Below, in pieces: positions 1,155-60,340 of a stretch of 64,000 nucleotides of DNA. Location: the NCBI GenBank assembly GCA_021776175.1, contig JAJFGJ010000003.1, positions 144,233 through 208,232 on the forward strand. Reading direction: 5' to 3'. A program made the translations under genes and the position numbers. The DNA comes from Kiloniellaceae bacterium. Its GTDB lineage: Bacteria; Pseudomonadota; Alphaproteobacteria; Kiloniellales; J153. The notes under the pieces were generated by a model. That model made no database searches and was not told the DNA's origin. It was given only the letters and a program-made list of their open reading frames with translations. Numbering within the stretch: position 1 is the stretch's first letter; each line of letters opens with the position of its first letter.

Positions 1155-1263
1155 CAGGAGACGGACATTAATTGACGATCCATGACTAAGGGAAAATTTA
1201 TCCCAAATCAAAGCGGGGAACACGGGGATAATGTTGCATGGTGTATGCCGAACGCTGAGATAA

Positions 1264-1306
1264 ACGCGAAACGGCGGCCCCAGGGGACCGCCGCTTGTTT
1301 TCGCGT
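1264..1306 (-). terminator. Long GC-rich hairpin just downstream of the rplI stop; candidate intrinsic terminator
   Basis: The outer arms acgcgaaa (1264-1271) and tttcgcgt (1299-1306) are perfectly complementary. They enclose an inner ggcggcccc/ggggaccgcc stem. U-rich flanks are present on both strands. Confidence 0.4.
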
Positions 1307-1323
1307 AGACTTAGAAGGTGTGC

Positions 1324-1938
1324 TTATGAAGCCGCTTCGGTTTCCTCGTCCGCGTCGACGGCTTCGGCTTCTTCGGCTTCGGCCTCCGCCGCGGCCAGGG
1401 CGGCCTCGGCTTCGGCTTCGGCGGCTTCTTCCGCCGCGAGTTGCTCGCTGGGACTGACCATGCGGCCCGCCTCGGCTTGCGCTTGGGCTTCCGCCTCGGA
1501 GCGGGCGACATTGACCGCGATCGTGACCGTCACTTCCGGATGCAGGCGCACTTGTACCGGATGCAGTCCTAGGGTTTTGATGACCGTGCTCAACCTGATC
1601 TGCGCGCGCGTGACGGTAAAGCCGGCTTCGCTCACCTCGGCCGCGATGTCGCGGGCGTTGGCCGAGCCGTAAAGTTGGCCCGATTCGCCCGCTTGGCGGA
1701 TCAAGGTAACCGTTAGGCCATCAAGTTTCTCGCCGACTTCCTGGGCCTCGCTGCGCCCTTTCAGGTTATCCGCCTCGAGCTGGGCGCGGTGCTGTTCGAA
1801 AAGCGCCAGGTTTTCCTTGGTCGCCCGCCGCGCCTTGCGCTGGGGTAACAAGAAGTTGCGTGCGAAACCCGGCTTGACGGACACGATATCGCCCATCTGG
1901 CCTAGTTTCTCGATACGCTCCAAAAGGATTACTTGCAT
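1324..1938 (-). CDS. rplI: 50S ribosomal protein L9 with an Ala/Glu-rich C-terminal extension
   Basis: N-terminus [36 protein letters not shown] is the canonical L9 start. Synteny with rpsR/rpsF supports the call. Confidence 0.95.
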
Positions 1939-17136: not shown

Positions 17137-17910
17137 CTAGTTTCGCCCAGCCATGACCCCGCCATCGGCGTCCCAGACCGCGCCGGTCACCCATGCGGCC
17201 CTATCCGACAACAAGAACTCGGCGACCGAGGCAACGTCATCGGCGCGGCCGACCCGGCCCAGGGGATGAAACCCATTGAAACCGGCCAGGGTCTCCTCGA
17301 TCTTTTCCGGCTCGATGAAGGAACCGTAGATCGGCGTGACCACGACCGCGGGCGAGACCGCATTGACCCTTATGCCATGGTCGGCCAATTCCATCGCCAG
17401 GTGCTGGGTCAGGGAATGGAGGCCGGCCTTGGCCATGGAGTAGGCCGAGGACGGAGTCGCCTTGATCGCTTGCTTGGCCCACATGGACCCGACGTTGACG
17501 ATGGCGCCGCCGCCATGGCGCTTCATGTTGCGGGCGACCGCCTGGGTAATGAAGAACAGGCCCCGGTTGAGATCCGCGTAGCCGTCGTAGTCGGCTTCGC
17601 CGTGCTCCAGAAAAGGGACCGGCTTAAAGGTGCCGGCGGCATTCACCAGGTGCTCGATGTGGCGCGGCTCGGTTTCCAAGGTCTCGATCAGATCGCCTAG
17701 TTGGGCCGTATCGGTAAGATCGACGGCCAGGGTATCGACGCGGCCCGTTCCGCTTTCCTTCACCGTCCTCTCGGCCCGATGCAGCTTGGCCCGGTCCCGT
17801 GCCACCAAGATGATGTCCAAGCCCTGTGCGTGCAGCCGTTTCGCCGTTTCCAGGCCCATGCCGCTGGATCCCCCGACGATCAAGGCCACTGAGTTGTTTT
17901 CCGACGCCAT
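17137..17910 (-). CDS. SDR-family oxidoreductase
   Basis: [14 protein letters not shown] (TGxxxGxG-like), NAAG, and YSMAKAG (YxxxK). I prefer the ATG at 17910 over the TTG at 17916. Confidence 0.9.
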
Positions 17911-17927
17911 TTCCAAATGTCTCCTGT

Positions 17928-17997
17928 CTATCTATCAGTAGGTAGAATTTCCATATATGCTTCCAAATACAACCTTCAAGCCCTATCTAACGATAGG
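17928..17997. promoter_or_regulatory. Two CTATC-containing inverted repeats in the SDR/TetR divergent region (candidate TetR operators)
   Basis: ctatcta-tcag-taggtag (17928-17945, 7-bp arms with 1 mismatch) and cctatc-taac-gatagg (17982-17997, perfect 6-bp arms). Confidence 0.4.
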
Positions 17998-18017
17998 TTG
18001 AGAACGGGAGTGAAATC

Positions 18018-18611
18018 ATGGCGGCCTCTAAGGCGGGAACATCCAAGGCGGGAACATCCAAGGCGGACGAGATACTCGATATCGCCGAGAGCCTGGTGCG
18101 GCGTAACGGCTACAACGGTTTCAGCTTCCGCGAAGTCGCGTCGCGGGCGGGGATCAAGAGCGCCAGTGTCCACTATCATTTTCCGGCCAAATCCGATCTG
18201 GGCGTGGCGGTCGCGCGCCGCTACACGGATCGCTTCATGGATGGATTGGGCGACCCCCAGGCTTCGCCGGACCCGTTGACTGCCTATGTCGCCGCTTTTC
18301 GCGCCGGGCTGACCGGGGACGGCCAGATGTGCCTCTGTGGGGTTCTGGGCGCGGAAAGCACGGCGTTGCCGGCGGAGGTCGCGGCGGAGGCCAAGCGATT
18401 CTGCGAACTCAATGCCGCGTGGTTGGAGTGCGCGCTATCGGCGCGCGGCCTGGCATCGGGGGCGCAAGACGCTTCCCTTCGGCGTCAGGCTCTGCTTATT
18501 CTTTCGGTACTGGAAGGCGCCATGATCGTGGCGCGGAATTTAGGCGATCTTACGGTTTTCGATGAGATCGCCGCCGGCCTAACCGAGGCGCGGTACTTGA
18601 GGCGCGCTTAG
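18018..18611 (+). CDS. TetR-family transcriptional regulator
   Basis: N-terminal HTH ILDIAESLVRRNGYNGFSFREVASRAGIKSASVHYHFPAKSDL. Confidence 0.9.
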   Translation: MAASKAGTSKAGTSKADEILDIAESLVRRNGYNGFSFREVASRAGIKSASVHYHFPAKSDLGVAVARRYTDRFMDGLGDPQASPDPLTAYVAAFRAGLTGDGQMCLCGVLGAESTALPAEVAAEAKRFCELNAAWLECALSARGLASGAQDASLRRQALLILSVLEGAMIVARNLGDLTVFDEIAAGLTEARYLRRA

Positions 18612-18630: not shown

Positions 18631-19392
18631 ATGACCGTCACCAGTCTGCACGATAGCCGGCGCAACAGCGATCCGTATTGGGATGCGCGGGTCGATCTCG
18701 CTTGCGCCTTTCGCTGGACCGTACGCCTGAACATGCACGAGGGTATCGCCAATCATTTCAGCCTGGCGGTCTCGGACGACGGATCGCGGTTCCTGATGAA
18801 TCCGAACAGCCGCCATTTCTCGCGCATCCGGGCCCGCGATATGCTGCTTCTGGACGCCCATGACCGCGAGACCATGAACCGGCCGGACGCGCCGGACCCG
18901 ACCGCCTGGGACATCCACGGCGCGATCCACCGGCGGGCGCCGCACGCGCGTTGCATCCTGCACGTTCATTCCAAGTATGCCCTGGTTCTGGCCACCCTCA
19001 AGGATCCGGTCATGCCGCCCATCGACCAGAACACCATGCGGTTTTACGACCGGATCGCCTATGACAACGGTTACGACGGCATGGGCCTGGGCGAGGAGGC
19101 GGAGCGCCTGGCGGCCAAGCTGGGCGACAAGACCGTTCTGGTCCTGGGCAATCACGGCGTGCTTTTCGCGAACGCCAGCGTCGCCGCGGCTTTCGACGAG
19201 ATGTACTATTTCGAGCGTGCCTGCGAGACCCTCATAACCGCCTACATGACCGGGCGCGAACTCAGTGTCGCTTCCGATGCCGTGGCACGAAAAACCGCCG
19301 GGCAGTGGTTGGCTTATCCAAGTTTCGCCGGCTCGCATTTCAACGAGCTCAAGGCGATTCTGGACCAAGAGGACCCGGACTACAGGACCTGA
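18631..19392 (+). CDS. Class II aldolase/adducin-family protein
   Basis: ILHVHSKYALVLATL and VLVLGNHGVLF motifs. Typical ~250 aa size. Confidence 0.85.
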   Translation: MTVTSLHDSRRNSDPYWDARVDLACAFRWTVRLNMHEGIANHFSLAVSDDGSRFLMNPNSRHFSRIRARDMLLLDAHDRETMNRPDAPDPTAWDIHGAIHRRAPHARCILHVHSKYALVLATLKDPVMPPIDQNTMRFYDRIAYDNGYDGMGLGEEAERLAAKLGDKTVLVLGNHGVLFANASVAAAFDEMYYFERACETLITAYMTGRELSVASDAVARKTAGQWLAYPSFAGSHFNELKAILDQEDPDYRT

Positions 19393-19415
19393 GGCAGGCC
19401 AGCCCGGCGCCCAAG

Positions 19416-19446
19416 AAAAAAAAGGCCCCGCCTTCCTGGCGGAGCC
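19416..19446 (-). terminator. Intrinsic terminator on the minus strand
   Basis: The minus strand reads ggctccgcc-aggaa-ggcggggcc followed by eight T (complement of 19416-19423). There is no T-run on the plus strand, so it serves a minus-strand transcript. Confidence 0.6.
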
Positions 19447-19761
19447 TCCCCGTGGCCGGATCGTCCGAATACCTTCGAAGACCCGGCGTTCACGGATACT
19501 GAGTGGTTACAAACGTGGCCAGGCGTACCTGCGGCCGTCCGGCACCCCAACCCGCCAGGAACCGAGACCCTCCGTCCGCGCGTCGCGCGTGGCGGGCGAT
19601 CGAACCGCGATAATCGCGGCCGGTCCCATCGTCTTGGCTGGATCGACTTGATGCCGCACGCCGGTAACCTCCCTGTTTCTCGAAGCCGTCACCCGCACCG
19701 GCCATCCTGGCCGGAAGTGGACCGGGTGAGGTCCGAGTAAGCGTCCTATTTCCTTTGGACA
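19416..19761 (-). ncRNA. Candidate ~345-nt structured non-coding (or small-protein) transcript, family unknown
   Basis: Bounded by a CRP-box/-10 promoter architecture upstream and the intrinsic terminator downstream. Several local hairpins are present (ccggcca-gga-tggccgg, ccgcga-tta-tcgcgg). No convincing protein in any frame. No match to tmRNA, RNase P or SRP signature motifs that I can recall. Confidence 0.35.
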
Positions 19762-19767
19762 CCTTTG

Positions 19768-19843
19768 AATTTAGGGATGGTTCGGCGCGGCCAATGTGAC
19801 GGTCATCACTAAACCGTGAAGACCGCGTGTGACGCCTATCACA
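19768..19843 (-). promoter_or_regulatory. Two CRP-type boxes plus a -10 element (class II-like geometry) for a minus-strand promoter
   Basis: TGTGA-cgccta-TCACA at 19828-19843 is perfect. TGTGA-cggtca-TCACT at 19795-19810 has one mismatch. The minus-strand TAAATT hexamer is at 19768-19773. The proximal box centre lies 29.5 nt upstream of the first hexamer base, which places it at -41.5 if the hexamer is -12..-7. Confidence 0.45.
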
Positions 19844-19852
19844 TTTGTGCGC

Positions 19853-20367: not shown

Positions 20368-20577
20368 ATGAAACGCGACCAGTTCTTGTCTCGCCTTCGC
20401 CGTCATGCCCGTAAAAACGGTCTGGCTTTCGGCGTCGTGAAGTCTCGGGGCAAGGGTAGCCACGTCACTGTCACGCTCGGTGCGCGACGCACCATCGTGA
20501 AGGGTGGCGAGCTGAAGCCTGGATATATCGCGTTAATCGTGCGCCAACTCGGTCTGCCGGGCGGCGTTTTAAAATGA
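20368..20577 (+). CDS. hicA: HicA-family toxin (mRNA interferase)
   Basis: 69 aa with a KGSH motif (SRGKGSHVTVTL) and a ...IVRQLGL C-terminal pattern. It sits upstream of a HicB-like gene. Confidence 0.8.
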   Translation: MKRDQFLSRLRRHARKNGLAFGVVKSRGKGSHVTVTLGARRTIVKGGELKPGYIALIVRQLGLPGGVLK

Positions 20578-20632
20578 ACCGTGACTGGCCCTACCCCACT
20601 TAAGGGCCGTGCCGCTCAAGGAGGAGGGCATC

Positions 20633-21073
20633 ATGCGCTTGATATATCCGGTCGATATCGCCGAACACGGCGGCCCACCAGACGAGGCCGGTTTCGCCGT
20701 GACCTTCCCGGATTTGCCCGAGGCAGTGACTTGGGGCGAGACCCTGGCCGAGGCCTTGGCCAATGCCACCGATTGCCTGGAGGAAGCCCTGGCCGCCCGC
20801 ATCCTGGCGCGCGAGGCACTGCCCGCGCCTTCGGCCGCTCGCGGCCGGCCGTGTGTGGCGCCCGGCAGTCTTATCGGCGCAAAGGCCGCGCTCTATCTGG
20901 CGCTGCGCGACTCCGGCACCACCCCGGCGAAGCTCGCCCGGCGCTTGGGCACGCAGCCTTCGGCCGTGACTCGGCTGCTCGACCCCGCGCACGCCAGTAA
21001 GCCGGCGCGGATCGACGACGCGCTGAACGCGCTAGGTAAGCGCCTTGTCGTCGCGCTCGAACCCGCCGCTTAA
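20633..21073 (+). CDS. hicB: HicB-family antitoxin with a C-terminal HTH
   Basis: MRLIYPVDIAEH...GFAVTFPDLPEAVTWGETLAEALANATDCLEEAL is a HicB N-terminal fold pattern. The C-terminal TPAKLARRLGTQPSAVTRLLDP is an HTH. The ATG at 20633 follows an aggagg SD. Confidence 0.8.
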   Translation: MRLIYPVDIAEHGGPPDEAGFAVTFPDLPEAVTWGETLAEALANATDCLEEALAARILAREALPAPSAARGRPCVAPGSLIGAKAALYLALRDSGTTPAKLARRLGTQPSAVTRLLDPAHASKPARIDDALNALGKRLVVALEPAA

Positions 21074-24940: not shown

Positions 24941-26494
24941 TTAGCGCGCTACGGCGCGGGGTGAGCAAGAGGCCACCAAGATGACCCGCTCGGCCGGAAA
25001 CGACACGGTCACCGAGGTGCCGACATTGAGCTCGCTCTCGATTTCAAGGGTTCCGCCATGTTGCTCGGCCAGAGCTCGAGTCAGGGGCAGGCCAAGGCCT
25101 GTCCCTTCGTGCTGGCGATTGAGATCGCCGTCGATCTGGCCGAATTTCGACAGAGCCTTCGGAATATCGTCCGGTGCCATTCCGATCCCGGTGTCGGTGA
25201 TCTGGAAGACGAAACCGGTCTCGCGGTGGCACCAAACCTTAAGCGAGACCTCGCTGCCTTCGCCGCTAAATTTGATCGCGTTGGTTAGAAGGTTCATCAG
25301 GATTTGCTTCATCTTGCGCTTGTCGGCACAAAGAATTGGGAGCCTGTCCTGGATATTCAGATTCAGAGTGACGCCATTCTTCATGGCGCGCTGATTGACC
25401 AATCTCGACGACGACTGGATGAGATCTGGAACTTCGATATTCTCTTCGTGTAGCTCGTCCATACCGGATTCGACCTTGGACAGATCCAGGATATCGTTGA
25501 TCAGTTCCAGCAAGTGCTTACCCGAGCCGTGGATATCGCTCACATAGTCCAGGTACTTCTTGTTTTCCATGGGGCCGAATATCTGATTACCGATGACCTC
25601 GGAAAAGCCGATAATCGCATTCAATGGCGTTCGCAGTTCGTGACTCATGGCCGCGAGGAATTCGGACTTGGCCTTGTTCGCCGACTCGGCATCAATTCGC
25701 GCGACGTGAAGCTGCTCGGCCAGGAAAACCAGTTCCGAGCCCTGCTGTTCAAGCGTTTGCTGCACGCCCTCAAGTTCGGCGACACGCTGGCGCATGGCAA
25801 GTTCGCTGATGCGCAGCGTGTTTTCCGTGCGCTTCGATTCGGTGATATCATGCAGTATGACGGTAAGGATTTGTTCCTGGCCCAAATAGAACTTCGATAT
25901 CGAGCCTCTGGCGGGGAACTCGGTTCCATCCTTTCGCAGGCCCAGGATATCCTTACGCACGTTCGCTATGCGGCTGCCCTCCGGCAAGCGCAGAAAATTT
26001 TCCACATGGGCCTTGTGCGTGTTCCGGAACTTCGCTGGGAGGAGTATCTCGACCGGGCGGCCGATCGCCTCGCTTGCCTCGTAGCCGAAAATAACCTCGG
26101 CCCCCTTGTTGAAAAGTTGAATATAGCCATGTCGATCCATCGATATGACCGCGTCGGGGGCGAGTTCAAGAATACCGGACAGCCGACGCTCTGAATTTCG
26201 CGAAGTTTCTTCGGCCAATAGGGATTTGACCACAAAGACAGCCGTGGCCCAGATCGCGAATAGGGCCAAGCCTCGATTGACCAGAGCCATCCATTGCATT
26301 CCCCCGGTCGGGGATAGGGTGAATCCGGTGATCGTCAGCGCGGACACCAGGATCGCGAGCGCATAGACGTCCCTGCGCCGTGCCAGCCATCGACCGGCCA
26401 CGATCACCGCCACATACGGCACGCCACTGGCGACCCCAAGCGGGAGCGAGAGATCGATCAGAAAAATGACGAGCGCCAGGGCGATCGCCAGCAT
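24941..26494 (-). CDS. Membrane PAS sensor histidine kinase (no adjacent response regulator)
   Basis: N-terminal TM bundle, a PAS segment (AVISMDRHGYIQLFNKGAEVIFGY), the H-box [23 protein letters not shown], and the G-boxes DTGIGM and GTGLGL. Confidence 0.9.
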   Translation of the reverse strand: MLAIALALVIFLIDLSLPLGVASGVPYVAVIVAGRWLARRRDVYALAILVSALTITGFTLSPTGGMQWMALVNRGLALFAIWATAVFVVKSLLAEETSRNSERRLSGILELAPDAVISMDRHGYIQLFNKGAEVIFGYEASEAIGRPVEILLPAKFRNTHKAHVENFLRLPEGSRIANVRKDILGLRKDGTEFPARGSISKFYLGQEQILTVILHDITESKRTENTLRISELAMRQRVAELEGVQQTLEQQGSELVFLAEQLHVARIDAESANKAKSEFLAAMSHELRTPLNAIIGFSEVIGNQIFGPMENKKYLDYVSDIHGSGKHLLELINDILDLSKVESGMDELHEENIEVPDLIQSSSRLVNQRAMKNGVTLNLNIQDRLPILCADKRKMKQILMNLLTNAIKFSGEGSEVSLKVWCHRETGFVFQITDTGIGMAPDDIPKALSKFGQIDGDLNRQHEGTGLGLPLTRALAEQHGGTLEIESELNVGTSVTVSFPAERVILVASCSPRAVAR

Positions 26495-58627: not shown

Positions 58628-58703
58628 GTCCCCTTCGTCTAGTGGCCTAGGACGCTGGCCTCTCACGCCGGAAACAGGGGTTCGACTCCCCTAGGGGACG
58701 CCA
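58628..58703 (+). tRNA. tRNA-Glu (anticodon CUC), CCA encoded
   Basis: Hand-folded cloverleaf. Acceptor GTCCCCT/AGGGGAC; anticodon stem CTGGC/GCCGG with loop CT-CTC-AC; T arm GGGG-TTCGACT-CCCC; 76 nt. Confidence 0.93.
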
Positions 58704-59632: not shown

Positions 59633-60340
59633 ATGAGACACAAGATCCTGGTGATTGAGGACAGCGTGGATATCGCCGATCTGGTGGCCTTGCACCTGGG
59701 CGATATGGGGTGCGAGGTCAAGACGGCGGGCGATGGTTCCACCGGCCTGCAACTGGCGCGCGCCGGGGGCTACGATCTCATCGTCCTGGATCTCATGTTG
59801 CCCGGCCTCGATGGCTTGGAGGTGTGCCGGCGCCTGCGCGGGCAAGCCGATACCACGCCGATTCTGATGCTGACCGCCAAGTCCTCCGAGCTCGACCGGG
59901 TCCACGGTCTGGAGATCGGGGCCGACGACTATCTCACCAAGCCGTTCAGCATCCGCGAATTGGTCGCGCGAGTGAAAGCGATGCTGCGCCGCACCGAGAT
60001 GCTGGCAAGGGATCCGCCCAAGGAAGACCCGCGGATCGCCGTGGGTGACTTGGAAATCGATGTCGCGCGCCACGATGTGAGCGTGGCCGGCCGTCCGGTC
60101 GAACTCACGGCCAAGGAGTTCGATCTTCTGGTGCGGTTCGCGCGCAACCCCGGCCGGGTCTATTCGCGCCAGCACCTGCTCGATTTGGTTTGGGGGAGCG
60201 GGCATCTCGGTTACGAGCATACGGTCAATTCGCATATCAACCGGCTGCGCGGCAAGATCGAGGCGGACCCCGCCAATCCGCGCTTTGTCCTGACCGTCTG
60301 GGGCGTGGGCTACAAGTTCAACGACAGGCTCGCGCCATGA
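59633..60340 (+). CDS. OmpR/PhoB-family response regulator
   Basis: KILVIEDSVDIADLV...YDLIVLDLMLPGLDG...LTAKS (receiver domain), then the winged helix LTAKEFDLLVRFARNPGRVYSRQHLLD...VWGVGYKF. Confidence 0.92.
   Translation: MRHKILVIEDSVDIADLVALHLGDMGCEVKTAGDGSTGLQLARAGGYDLIVLDLMLPGLDGLEVCRRLRGQADTTPILMLTAKSSELDRVHGLEIGADDYLTKPFSIRELVARVKAMLRRTEMLARDPPKEDPRIAVGDLEIDVARHDVSVAGRPVELTAKEFDLLVRFARNPGRVYSRQHLLDLVWGSGHLGYEHTVNSHINRLRGKIEADPANPRFVLTVWGVGYKFNDRLAP

Follow-up and report, generated by a model that had tools for sequence, protein, structure and literature searches.

What fills the 460 nt that separate an aldolase gene from a Pmp3 gene in a bacterium of the family Kiloniellaceae? The two genes, a class II aldolase/adducin-family gene and a Pmp3/YqaE-family gene, lie in assembly GCA_021776175.1 on contig JAJFGJ010000003.1, of which a stretch of 64,000 nt was analysed (hereafter the window, to which all positions refer unless another locus is named), and the gap runs from the aldolase stop (19392) to the Pmp3 stop (19853). 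A preliminary description, made by reading the window, had given the gap about the same size, had seen no credible protein in it and had proposed a non-coding orphan transcription unit that is headed by twin CRP-type boxes and closed by an intrinsic terminator. This proposal is supported by the current analysis through the conservation of the promoter, covariation within the RNA, the absence of an Rfam family and an open reading frame (ORF) that is not conserved. We propose that the gap probably contains a stand-alone minus-strand gene whose product is a non-coding RNA, structured and about 350 nt long, and which has a predicted CRP-type activator promoter and an intrinsic terminator.

A predicted twin-box promoter conserved with the unit

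Homologous loci were collected by scanning a genome collection with the aldolase protein, and then by taking the aldolase homologs of a large protein collection together with their contigs. The closest relatives are two metagenome-assembled genomes of Kiloniellaceae, the aldolases of which are 85% and 80% identical in amino acid sequence to that of the window and the intergenic regions of which share 83% and 78.5% nucleotide identity with it. In all, eight loci other than the window, from related Kiloniellaceae-like alphaproteobacteria and two of them partial, carry the unit; the homologs added were L085, L086, L089/L090 and L092, with partial copies in L087, L088, L091 and L093, and homologs of the RNA are carried by L003 and L004 as well. 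Every homolog is organised as one unit of two boxes, a -10 element, the 5' hairpin P1, the RNA and the terminator, and the long form of the RNA measures 280-370 nt. Searches with nhmmer found no copy where the aldolase is 73% identical or less, or in other contexts (L094, L104-L106 and about 75 other alphaproteobacterial loci), and neither blastn nor nhmmer found a second copy of the RNA in the window. A blastn search of 72,556 plasmids gave no match, and a scan of viral contigs gave no match to the box pattern and eight to the P1 hairpin pattern, none of which fits the RNA profile. A metagenome scan with the 20-mer GGGAGGTTACCGGCGTGCGG, which is not the best probe, gave two matches, both at chance level and in unrelated sequence. 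Together, these searches point to an RNA family that is real but narrow, belonging to a small group of uncultured marine Kiloniellaceae-like bacteria.

The two boxes and the TAAATT hexamer are present on the minus strand where the preliminary description had placed them (Table 1). The distal box matches TGTGA-N6-TCACA perfectly and the proximal box does so at nine of ten positions; they are the only matches with at most one mismatch in the window, where shuffled sequences lead one to expect 0.8, and the perfect distal box has no second copy in the 64 kb. Among the 106 loci fetched (about 600 kb), the strict pattern TGTGAY-N4-RTCACA occurs only upstream of this RNA. In eight loci the half-sites of this consensus are kept, but almost every sequence has its own four central bases, and these palindromes with conserved half-sites and freely varying spacers give a clear footprint; in L086, L089 and L092 the proximal box itself is a perfect TGTGAY-N4-RTCACA. 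The twin boxes, the -10 element and the spacing between box and RNA are kept in all eight loci that include the promoter: the box centres lie 33 bp apart in the window and 31-33 bp apart across loci, a TAnnTn element resembling a -10 hexamer follows the proximal box (21 nt after it in the window and in L103), and the distance from the proximal box to P1 is a constant 53-54 nt in the seven long-form loci measured. The boxes also travel with the RNA, being retained in L086 and L092, which have no Pmp3 gene, and in L103, where the unit lies upstream of Pmp3.

The proximal box overlaps the place of a -35 element. No -35 hexamer was found and a sigma-70 scan requiring both hexamers finds no promoter, which is consistent with dependence on an activator. 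The start of transcription, placed solely by the -10 element, would be at about 19761-19764; a start 7 nt downstream of TAAATT (about 19761) would put the box centres at -41.5 and -74.5, an arrangement known from class II CAP-dependent promoters of E. coli that have a further site upstream (PMC10187061). We infer an activator-dependent promoter of CRP type with tandem sites, one in the class II position and one upstream of it. Between the boxes, the seven long-form loci carry the element C(T/A)TCACG, which is not found in L103 and looks like a third TCAC sequence, possibly an additional half-site. Other kinds of promoter were considered and rejected. No GG-N10-GC is conserved, as a sigma-54 promoter would demand, and the operators of PpsR/CrtJ (TGT-N12-ACA) and RirA (TGA-N9-TCA), as well as those of LacI/GalR and GacA type, misfit in spacing or centre.

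The regulator suggested by the boxes belongs to the CRP family (CgrA/CAP-like). In Rhodospirillum centenum, the cGMP-responsive CRP homologue CgrA protects the sequence TGTGA-N6-TCACA, which is identical to the E. coli consensus (PMC4681086; PMC10187061). The Kiloniellaceae are placed by NCBI in the Rhodospirillales, the order of R. centenum, and a CRP-type site is therefore not foreign to this order. The view of the preliminary description that a CRP-controlled RNA would be unusual in an alphaproteobacterium has to be softened to that extent: the orphan unit stands, but its type of site has a precedent in CgrA. The 16-bp TGTGA-N6-TCACA, with a pyrimidine (Y) as its sixth base and a purine (R) as its eleventh, is shared with the class II and tandem CRP promoters of E. 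coli and with the CgrA promoter, and the E. coli promoters also resemble the present one in having the proximal site over a missing -35 element and a second site three helical turns upstream. The promoter predicted here differs in that it would drive a large structured RNA and not a catabolic operon.

Structure and conservation of the predicted RNA

The minus strand from 19412 to 19765 folds at -182.5 kcal/mol, with z = -6.3 relative to dinucleotide shuffles, and the plus strand gives z = -2.9. This fold and the helices conserved across homologs agree with the tight hairpins noticed in the preliminary description, which had also suggested a covariation test. Covariation was assessed on an alignment of eight sequences (A4), with 3' partners slid by 1-3 columns and 500 shuffles as controls, and compensatory changes were found beyond those of the controls. 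RNAalifold proposed 95 pairs on A4, 93.9% paired, of which 28 show changes on both sides as against 3-8 in the slid controls. One of its helices, P6 (columns 226-231 with 240-245, 87.5% paired), was rejected because P3b (columns 116-122 with 238-244, 98% paired) fits better. The final model comprises 14 helices with 96 pairs, 94.6% paired, and 29 double-change pairs against the 3-8 of the slid controls; none of the 500 shuffles attains its values for pairing and double changes, and its helices covary along the whole length of the RNA. For instance, pair 119:241 of P3b is found as UA, CG and AU, and pair 250:265 of A4 is CG in four sequences and UA in the other four. The minimum-energy folds computed separately for the window and the distant L086 agree on the architecture. 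That the transcript would be read from the minus strand is indicated by the promoter, the U-tract and invariant G-U pairs such as 35:89 and 100:282 (the latter in all eight sequences). The RNA is 81-86% identical to that of close relatives, compared with 64-66% identity at the third codon positions of the aldolase gene, which indicates purifying selection.

P1 is the most conserved element of the RNA, and P3 and P3b together make a 21-bp long-range helix that closes a domain. The segment ACAGGGAGG is invariant and is paired in the model. Loop sequences differ between the clades in places: AGGAU forms the apical loop of P2 in the clade of the window only, and the apical loop of P8 reads CAGGUAG in the distant clade. 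At the 3' end, where the preliminary description had read a hairpin and T8 terminator at 19416-19446, the terminator scan finds a 14-pair stem followed by T8; the terminator loop is AGGAN in seven of eight sequences, and the predicted RNA ends with the U8 tract, 24 nt beyond the stop of the aldolase gene that converges on it.

The central part of the RNA is variable and partly deletable, as seen in L004, L085 and L103. L004 has lost the entire P4 hairpin (21 nt), and the window and L004 have no counterpart of the 12-nt segment GCGGGGAGC (GCGACGCGGGGA-like), which in the six remaining homologs makes up the tip of P5 with its GGGGA loop. In L085 (3775-4160, minus strand) a deletion spanning about 80 columns in the middle of the RNA takes out part of P3, P3b and P4, and both boxes are degenerate (TGCGATAGGCATCACA and AACGACGACCGTCACG, i.e. 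TGCGA... and AACGAC...GTCACG, 31 bp apart), so promoter and RNA may be decaying together in this locus. L103, a more distant locus (1205-1445, minus strand), carries a short form of about 165 nt with a twin-box promoter, P1 and a terminator with the loop CAGGAU. Its P1 is kept as GUCCGAAGGUGAUCGGAC with the loop AAGGUGAU, and what lies between P1 and the terminator consists mainly of purine-rich motifs resembling Shine-Dalgarno (SD) sequences (UCAGGUAG, GCGGGGAG and GCAGGAAG). This short unit is located about 100 nt upstream of Pmp3 and not downstream of it, and the aldolase and Pmp3 genes of L103 are 52 nt apart.

The preliminary description had been unable to match the region to known RNA families, and the searches of Rfam 15 gave the same outcome. 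At the gathering threshold only a tRNA elsewhere in the window matches, at permissive settings the best matches are driven by the terminator (23.7 bits where 44.2 would be required), no family was found in six homologous loci, and ARAGORN finds no tRNA or tmRNA in the region. The RNA would represent an undescribed family that is not in Rfam 15, and as a candidate it is well supported. It resembles the alphaproteobacterial small RNAs (sRNAs) of Rfam (AbcR/alpha-r15, alpha-r14, alpha-r7/9/35/45, suhB, 6S, two-piece tmRNA, RNase P) in bacterial class, in its stand-alone intergenic position and in its rho-independent end. It differs from them in giving no covariance-model match at gathering or permissive thresholds (seven loci), in being 2-3 times longer and in its loops, which are purine-rich where theirs are CU-rich and anti-SD.

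Table 1. Features of the aldolase-Pmp3 gap and its flanking genes, by position in the window.
Feature	Position (nt)	Strand	Remarks
Class II aldolase/adducin-family gene	18631-19392	plus	convergent with the Pmp3/YqaE-family gene
Pmp3/YqaE-family gene, 64 aa	19853-20047	minus	
Distal CRP-type box, TGTGA-CGCCTA-TCACA	19828-19843	minus	predicted centre at about -74.5; box read directly
CTTCACG/CATCACG element between the boxes	19815-19821	minus	from alignment A3
Proximal CRP-type box, TGTGA-CGGTCA-TCACT (AGTGATGACCGTCACA on the minus strand)	19795-19810	minus	predicted centre at about -41.5
-10 element, TAAATT	19773-19768	minus	TAACTA, TACCTT, TATGTA in homologs
Predicted RNA, about 346-349 nt	19416-19764	minus	from the putative start (19761-19764) to the end of U8
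P1, 5' hairpin, GUCCAA[AGGAAA]UAGGAC	19743-19760	minus	97.6% paired
P2, long hairpin in three segments	19679-19737	minus	helices 2-4, 91-100% paired, 6 double-change pairs
P3 and P3b, 5' strand	19650-19673	minus	includes GGGAGG (SD-like) and GUG of the putative ORF
P4 hairpin	19602-19626	minus	inside the P3 domain; variable, partly dispensable region
P5 hairpin	19576-19592	minus	inside the P3 domain; variable, partly dispensable region
P3b, 3' strand	19540-19546	minus	P3b: 7 pairs, 98% paired, 3 covarying
P7 hairpin, loop AGGUAC	19517-19536	minus	enclosed by the 3' strands of P3 and P3b
P3, 3' strand	19501-19516	minus	P3: 14 pairs, 96% paired, 4 covarying
P8 hairpin, apical loop AAGGUAUU	19451-19494	minus	helices 12 and 13, 6 double-change pairs
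Intrinsic terminator, G+C-rich stem of 13-14 bp, loop AGGAA	19451-19419 (stem, terminator scan)	minus	19450-19420 in the structure model; whole element with U8, 19416-19450; 98% paired across homologs
Terminator T8/U8 tract	19423-19416	minus	

Neighbouring genes and alternative readings of the locus

The Pmp3 gene adjoins the RNA unit in six of nine loci. The RNA of the long-form loci lies next to the aldolase gene and converges on it, which is not so in L103, and its linkage to the neighbouring genes appears to reflect history rather than mechanism. Two direct links to the neighbours were considered and rejected. A type I toxin-antitoxin system, with Pmp3 as toxin and the RNA as antitoxin, does not agree with the presence of the RNA without Pmp3 in L086 and L092, with its varying position and with the lack of an antisense overlap; antisense regulation of the aldolase gene does not agree with the lack of overlap and with the location of Pmp3 between both in L103. 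The wider locus is variable as well. A HicA/HicB toxin-antitoxin pair (20368-21073) stands between Pmp3 and an FAD oxidoreductase gene in the window and is also found in L085; it is not in L003 or L089 and is therefore a small mobile insertion. On the other side, an SDR gene on the minus strand and, on the plus strand, a TetR-family gene occupy 17137-18611 between a GATase-like gene and the aldolase gene, the latter two are directly adjacent in L085, and a different gene with no Pfam match fills the same spot in L086, L087 and L089. This spot is a variable slot in an otherwise syntenic cluster of AraC/DJ-1, ABM, unknown, GATase and aldolase genes. A PAS histidine-kinase gene (24941-26494) lies about 5 kb from the RNA, and a histidine-kinase gene is located directly upstream of the short RNA unit in L103 (1547-2323). 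Further away, E. coli UvrY shows, with its receiver domain, a weak tblastn similarity to positions 59717-60013 (25% over 102 aa, E = 5e-9), which indicates a response-regulator gene that nothing ties to the RNA, and the tRNA gene that is the sole Rfam match in the window lies at 58628-58700 on the plus strand (57.7 bits).

The conservation of the gap could in principle be that of a coding sequence, i.e. of a small protein of about 50-54 codons with a GTG start or of a dual-function RNA, which we consider very unlikely. The frame of 54 codons with a GTG start and a GGGAGG SD sequence, which the preliminary description had kept in mind, does exist within an ORF at 19507-19698 on the minus strand. 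Its SD-like GGGAGG is placed 8 nt before the GUG, ACAGGGAGGTTACCGGCGTGCGG is invariant in the close clade, the window, L003, L004 and L087 all keep the frame open and in register with larger indels of 12 and 21 nt, and distant homologs show a mild excess of third-position substitutions (e.g. 16/12/24 by codon position for L087). However, indels of 1 nt break the frame in L086, L089 and L092, the deletion in L085 removes the start and the first codons and the short form in L103 is without the whole segment; the ORF is not conserved in register across the homologs, in line with the earlier judgement that the gap holds no credible protein. Substitutions relative to close relatives (10/8/8 and 10/12/14 by codon position) show none of the three-base periodicity that the preliminary description had named as the sign of a small protein, and invariant runs of 20-23 nt occur without wobble variation, whereas the third positions of the aldolase gene are merely 64-66% identical. 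Moreover, the SD sequence and the GUG are buried in the covarying P3/P3b helix, the predicted peptides have no Pfam match and the gene callers of the source collections predicted no gene there. A reading of the region as a structured 3' untranslated region (UTR) or terminator region of Pmp3 (in L103, as its leader), with the boxes regulating something else, is improbable in our view. Since the terminator scan finds no terminator between the Pmp3 stop (19853) and the RNA, read-through is likely, and this reading also draws on the adjacency of Pmp3 in six of nine loci and on the position of the short form about 100 nt upstream of Pmp3 in L103. It does not account for the intact boxes, -10 element and structure that persist in L086 and L092 without Pmp3, for the fixed distance of the boxes and the -10 element to P1 on either side of Pmp3, or for the boxes that seem to decay along with the RNA in L085. 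Least credible of all is a chance G+C-rich sequence or a decaying, functionless remnant that folds because of its base composition. Stable folds and open frames are indeed common in a G+C-rich genome, the family is limited to a narrow clade, and the 20-mer scan of metagenomes gave just its two chance matches. Against this stand the z of -6.3 relative to dinucleotide shuffles, the 29 covarying pairs, the clear footprint left by palindromes with variable spacers and a conservation above that of synonymous sites.

Possible function and significance

A stand-alone gene for a structured RNA, our preferred reading, would be expressed as follows. A CRP-family activator responsive to a cyclic nucleotide would bind the two 16-bp sites at about -41.5 and -74.5 and, once bound, bring RNA polymerase to a promoter with a -10 but no -35 element, and transcription would terminate at the hairpin and U8 tract. 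The RNA would then fold into P1, P2, a domain closed by P3/P3b in which GGGAGG and GUG are buried, P8 and the terminator. Its conserved loops, predicted to be exposed, are purine-rich and SD-like: GAAGGAAAU in P1, AGGUAC in P7, AAGGUA or CAGGUAG in P8 and CC[AGGAN]GG in the terminator, along with a P5 loop of GGGGA in six of eight sequences. The abundance of GGA motifs remarked upon in the preliminary description does not extend to GGA as such, which is not enriched (12 occurrences against 9.9 +/- 2.2 in dinucleotide shuffles, and nonsignificant in most homologs), but holds for AGG[A/T], with 8 occurrences against 2.4 expected and none of 300 shuffles reaching 8.

How such an RNA might act can be answered only tentatively. 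One possibility, which we hold with limited confidence, is that it acts in trans as a decoy or titrating RNA. The purine-rich SD-like apical loops (AAGGAAA, AGGUAC, AAGGUA/CAGGUAG, AGGAN, GGGGA) would be displayed on a rigid scaffold and would draw away whatever else recognises SD-like sequences, be it a CsrA/RsmA-like protein or the CU-rich seeds of sRNAs. The enrichment of AGG[A/T], its location in the conserved loops and the 165-nt form in L103, which keeps mainly those loops, are in agreement with this. Slightly more doubtful is a classical trans-acting sRNA that pairs with its targets, with or without Hfq, through a seed in the invariant P1 loop or another single-stranded segment, the rest of the molecule being scaffold. 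In favour of this, the unit comes with a predicted promoter of its own and ends in an intrinsic terminator and U-tract; the most conserved element (P1) is at the 5' end, as in many sRNAs with a 5' seed, and the variable, partly deletable central part would suit a scaffold. E. coli possesses base-pairing sRNAs controlled by CRP, namely CyaR, McaS and Spot 42, and these speak for the base-pairing reading. Like them, the present unit is a stand-alone sRNA gene with a CRP-site promoter and an intrinsic terminator. They are, however, Hfq-dependent seed-pairing RNAs of 85-110 nt from a different bacterial class, and the RNA described here, with about 350 nt and 14 helices, resembles them neither in sequence nor in Rfam searches. 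A length of 350 nt with helices covarying from end to end is atypical of seed-type sRNAs, purine-rich SD-like loops are unable to pair with SD regions, and target prediction by duplex energy over 51 start regions in the window gave nothing that could be interpreted in sequence so rich in G+C. The modularity, size and rigid scaffold of the RNA are the reasons for which we favour a decoy over seed pairing.

A more specific version of the decoy, which we regard as rather unlikely, would make the RNA an alphaproteobacterial functional analogue of CsrB or CrcZ, i.e. a sponge controlled by CRP (CgrA) that titrates, through its SD-like apical loops, a global translational repressor or CU-rich anti-SD sRNAs. 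The comparison with CsrB/CsrC and RsmX/Y/Z, which are sponges for CsrA/RsmA, and with CrcZ, a sponge for Hfq/Crc of about 400 nt, has some merits. The RNA is near CsrB and CrcZ in size, it has several hairpins with A(N)GGA-like apical loops (CC[AGGAU]GG, GA[AGGAAA]U and ACAGGGAG) in the manner of the CsrB/Rsm sponges, it is modular as they are and retains its loops upon shortening (L103), and a carbon or second-messenger regulator controls those RNAs as would be the case here, where the regulator is predicted from its sites. Unlike CsrB with its approximately 20 motifs, each RNA of this family contains 2-4 AGGA, and GGA is not enriched. Its palindrome, TGT-N10-ACA, is also not the GacA/UvrY-type TGTAAG-N6-CTTACA but 2 bp shorter than the GacA box. 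The analogy with CsrB/Rsm thus fails two tests, as GGA is not enriched and the geometry of a GacA box is missing. A search of the literature on the distribution of CsrA in Alphaproteobacteria and Rhodospirillales yielded nothing usable.

Several observations weigh against the proposed picture of a CRP-controlled RNA gene with decoy loops. The covariation comes from just eight distinct long sequences of one narrow clade with two sub-clades, and many of the double changes are 4:4 splits between these sub-clades, each of which may represent one event. The transcript is a prediction from the DNA, its putative start site follows from the -10 element, and L089 and L092 have weak U-tracts. Where the arrangement is that of the window, the RNA might also arise as a 3' UTR by read-through from Pmp3. 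With tblastn, E. coli CRP, CsrA and Hfq find no match in the 64-kb window or in the fetched flanks and loci, so that no CRP-family, CsrA or Hfq gene accompanies the unit there. As for the loops, the density of GGA is not above chance, two of the conserved loops (P7 and P8) carry GGU and not GGA, and the GGGGA tip is not in the RNA of the window itself.

The unit described here adds a candidate RNA family to the Kiloniellaceae-like Rhodospirillales, marine bacteria that are poorly studied, mostly uncultured and often associated with hosts, and the predicted RNA is unusually large and elaborately folded among bacterial sRNAs. Its near-textbook tandem CRP site implies that a cyclic-nucleotide regulator of CAP/CgrA type operates in this clade. 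Among the sequences examined, the promoter of the RNA is the strongest target predicted for such a regulator. As the site matches the E. coli consensus, dependence on CRP could be tested cheaply in E. coli. If the RNA were a sponge, cAMP or cGMP signalling would be tied directly to post-transcriptional control, and we know of no such cyclic-nucleotide sponge circuit in this lineage. Should the decoy prove true, it would be the first RNA sponge of this kind described in an alphaproteobacterium; should it prove false, the locus would still provide a clean example of an sRNA gene that can be recognised by its sequence.

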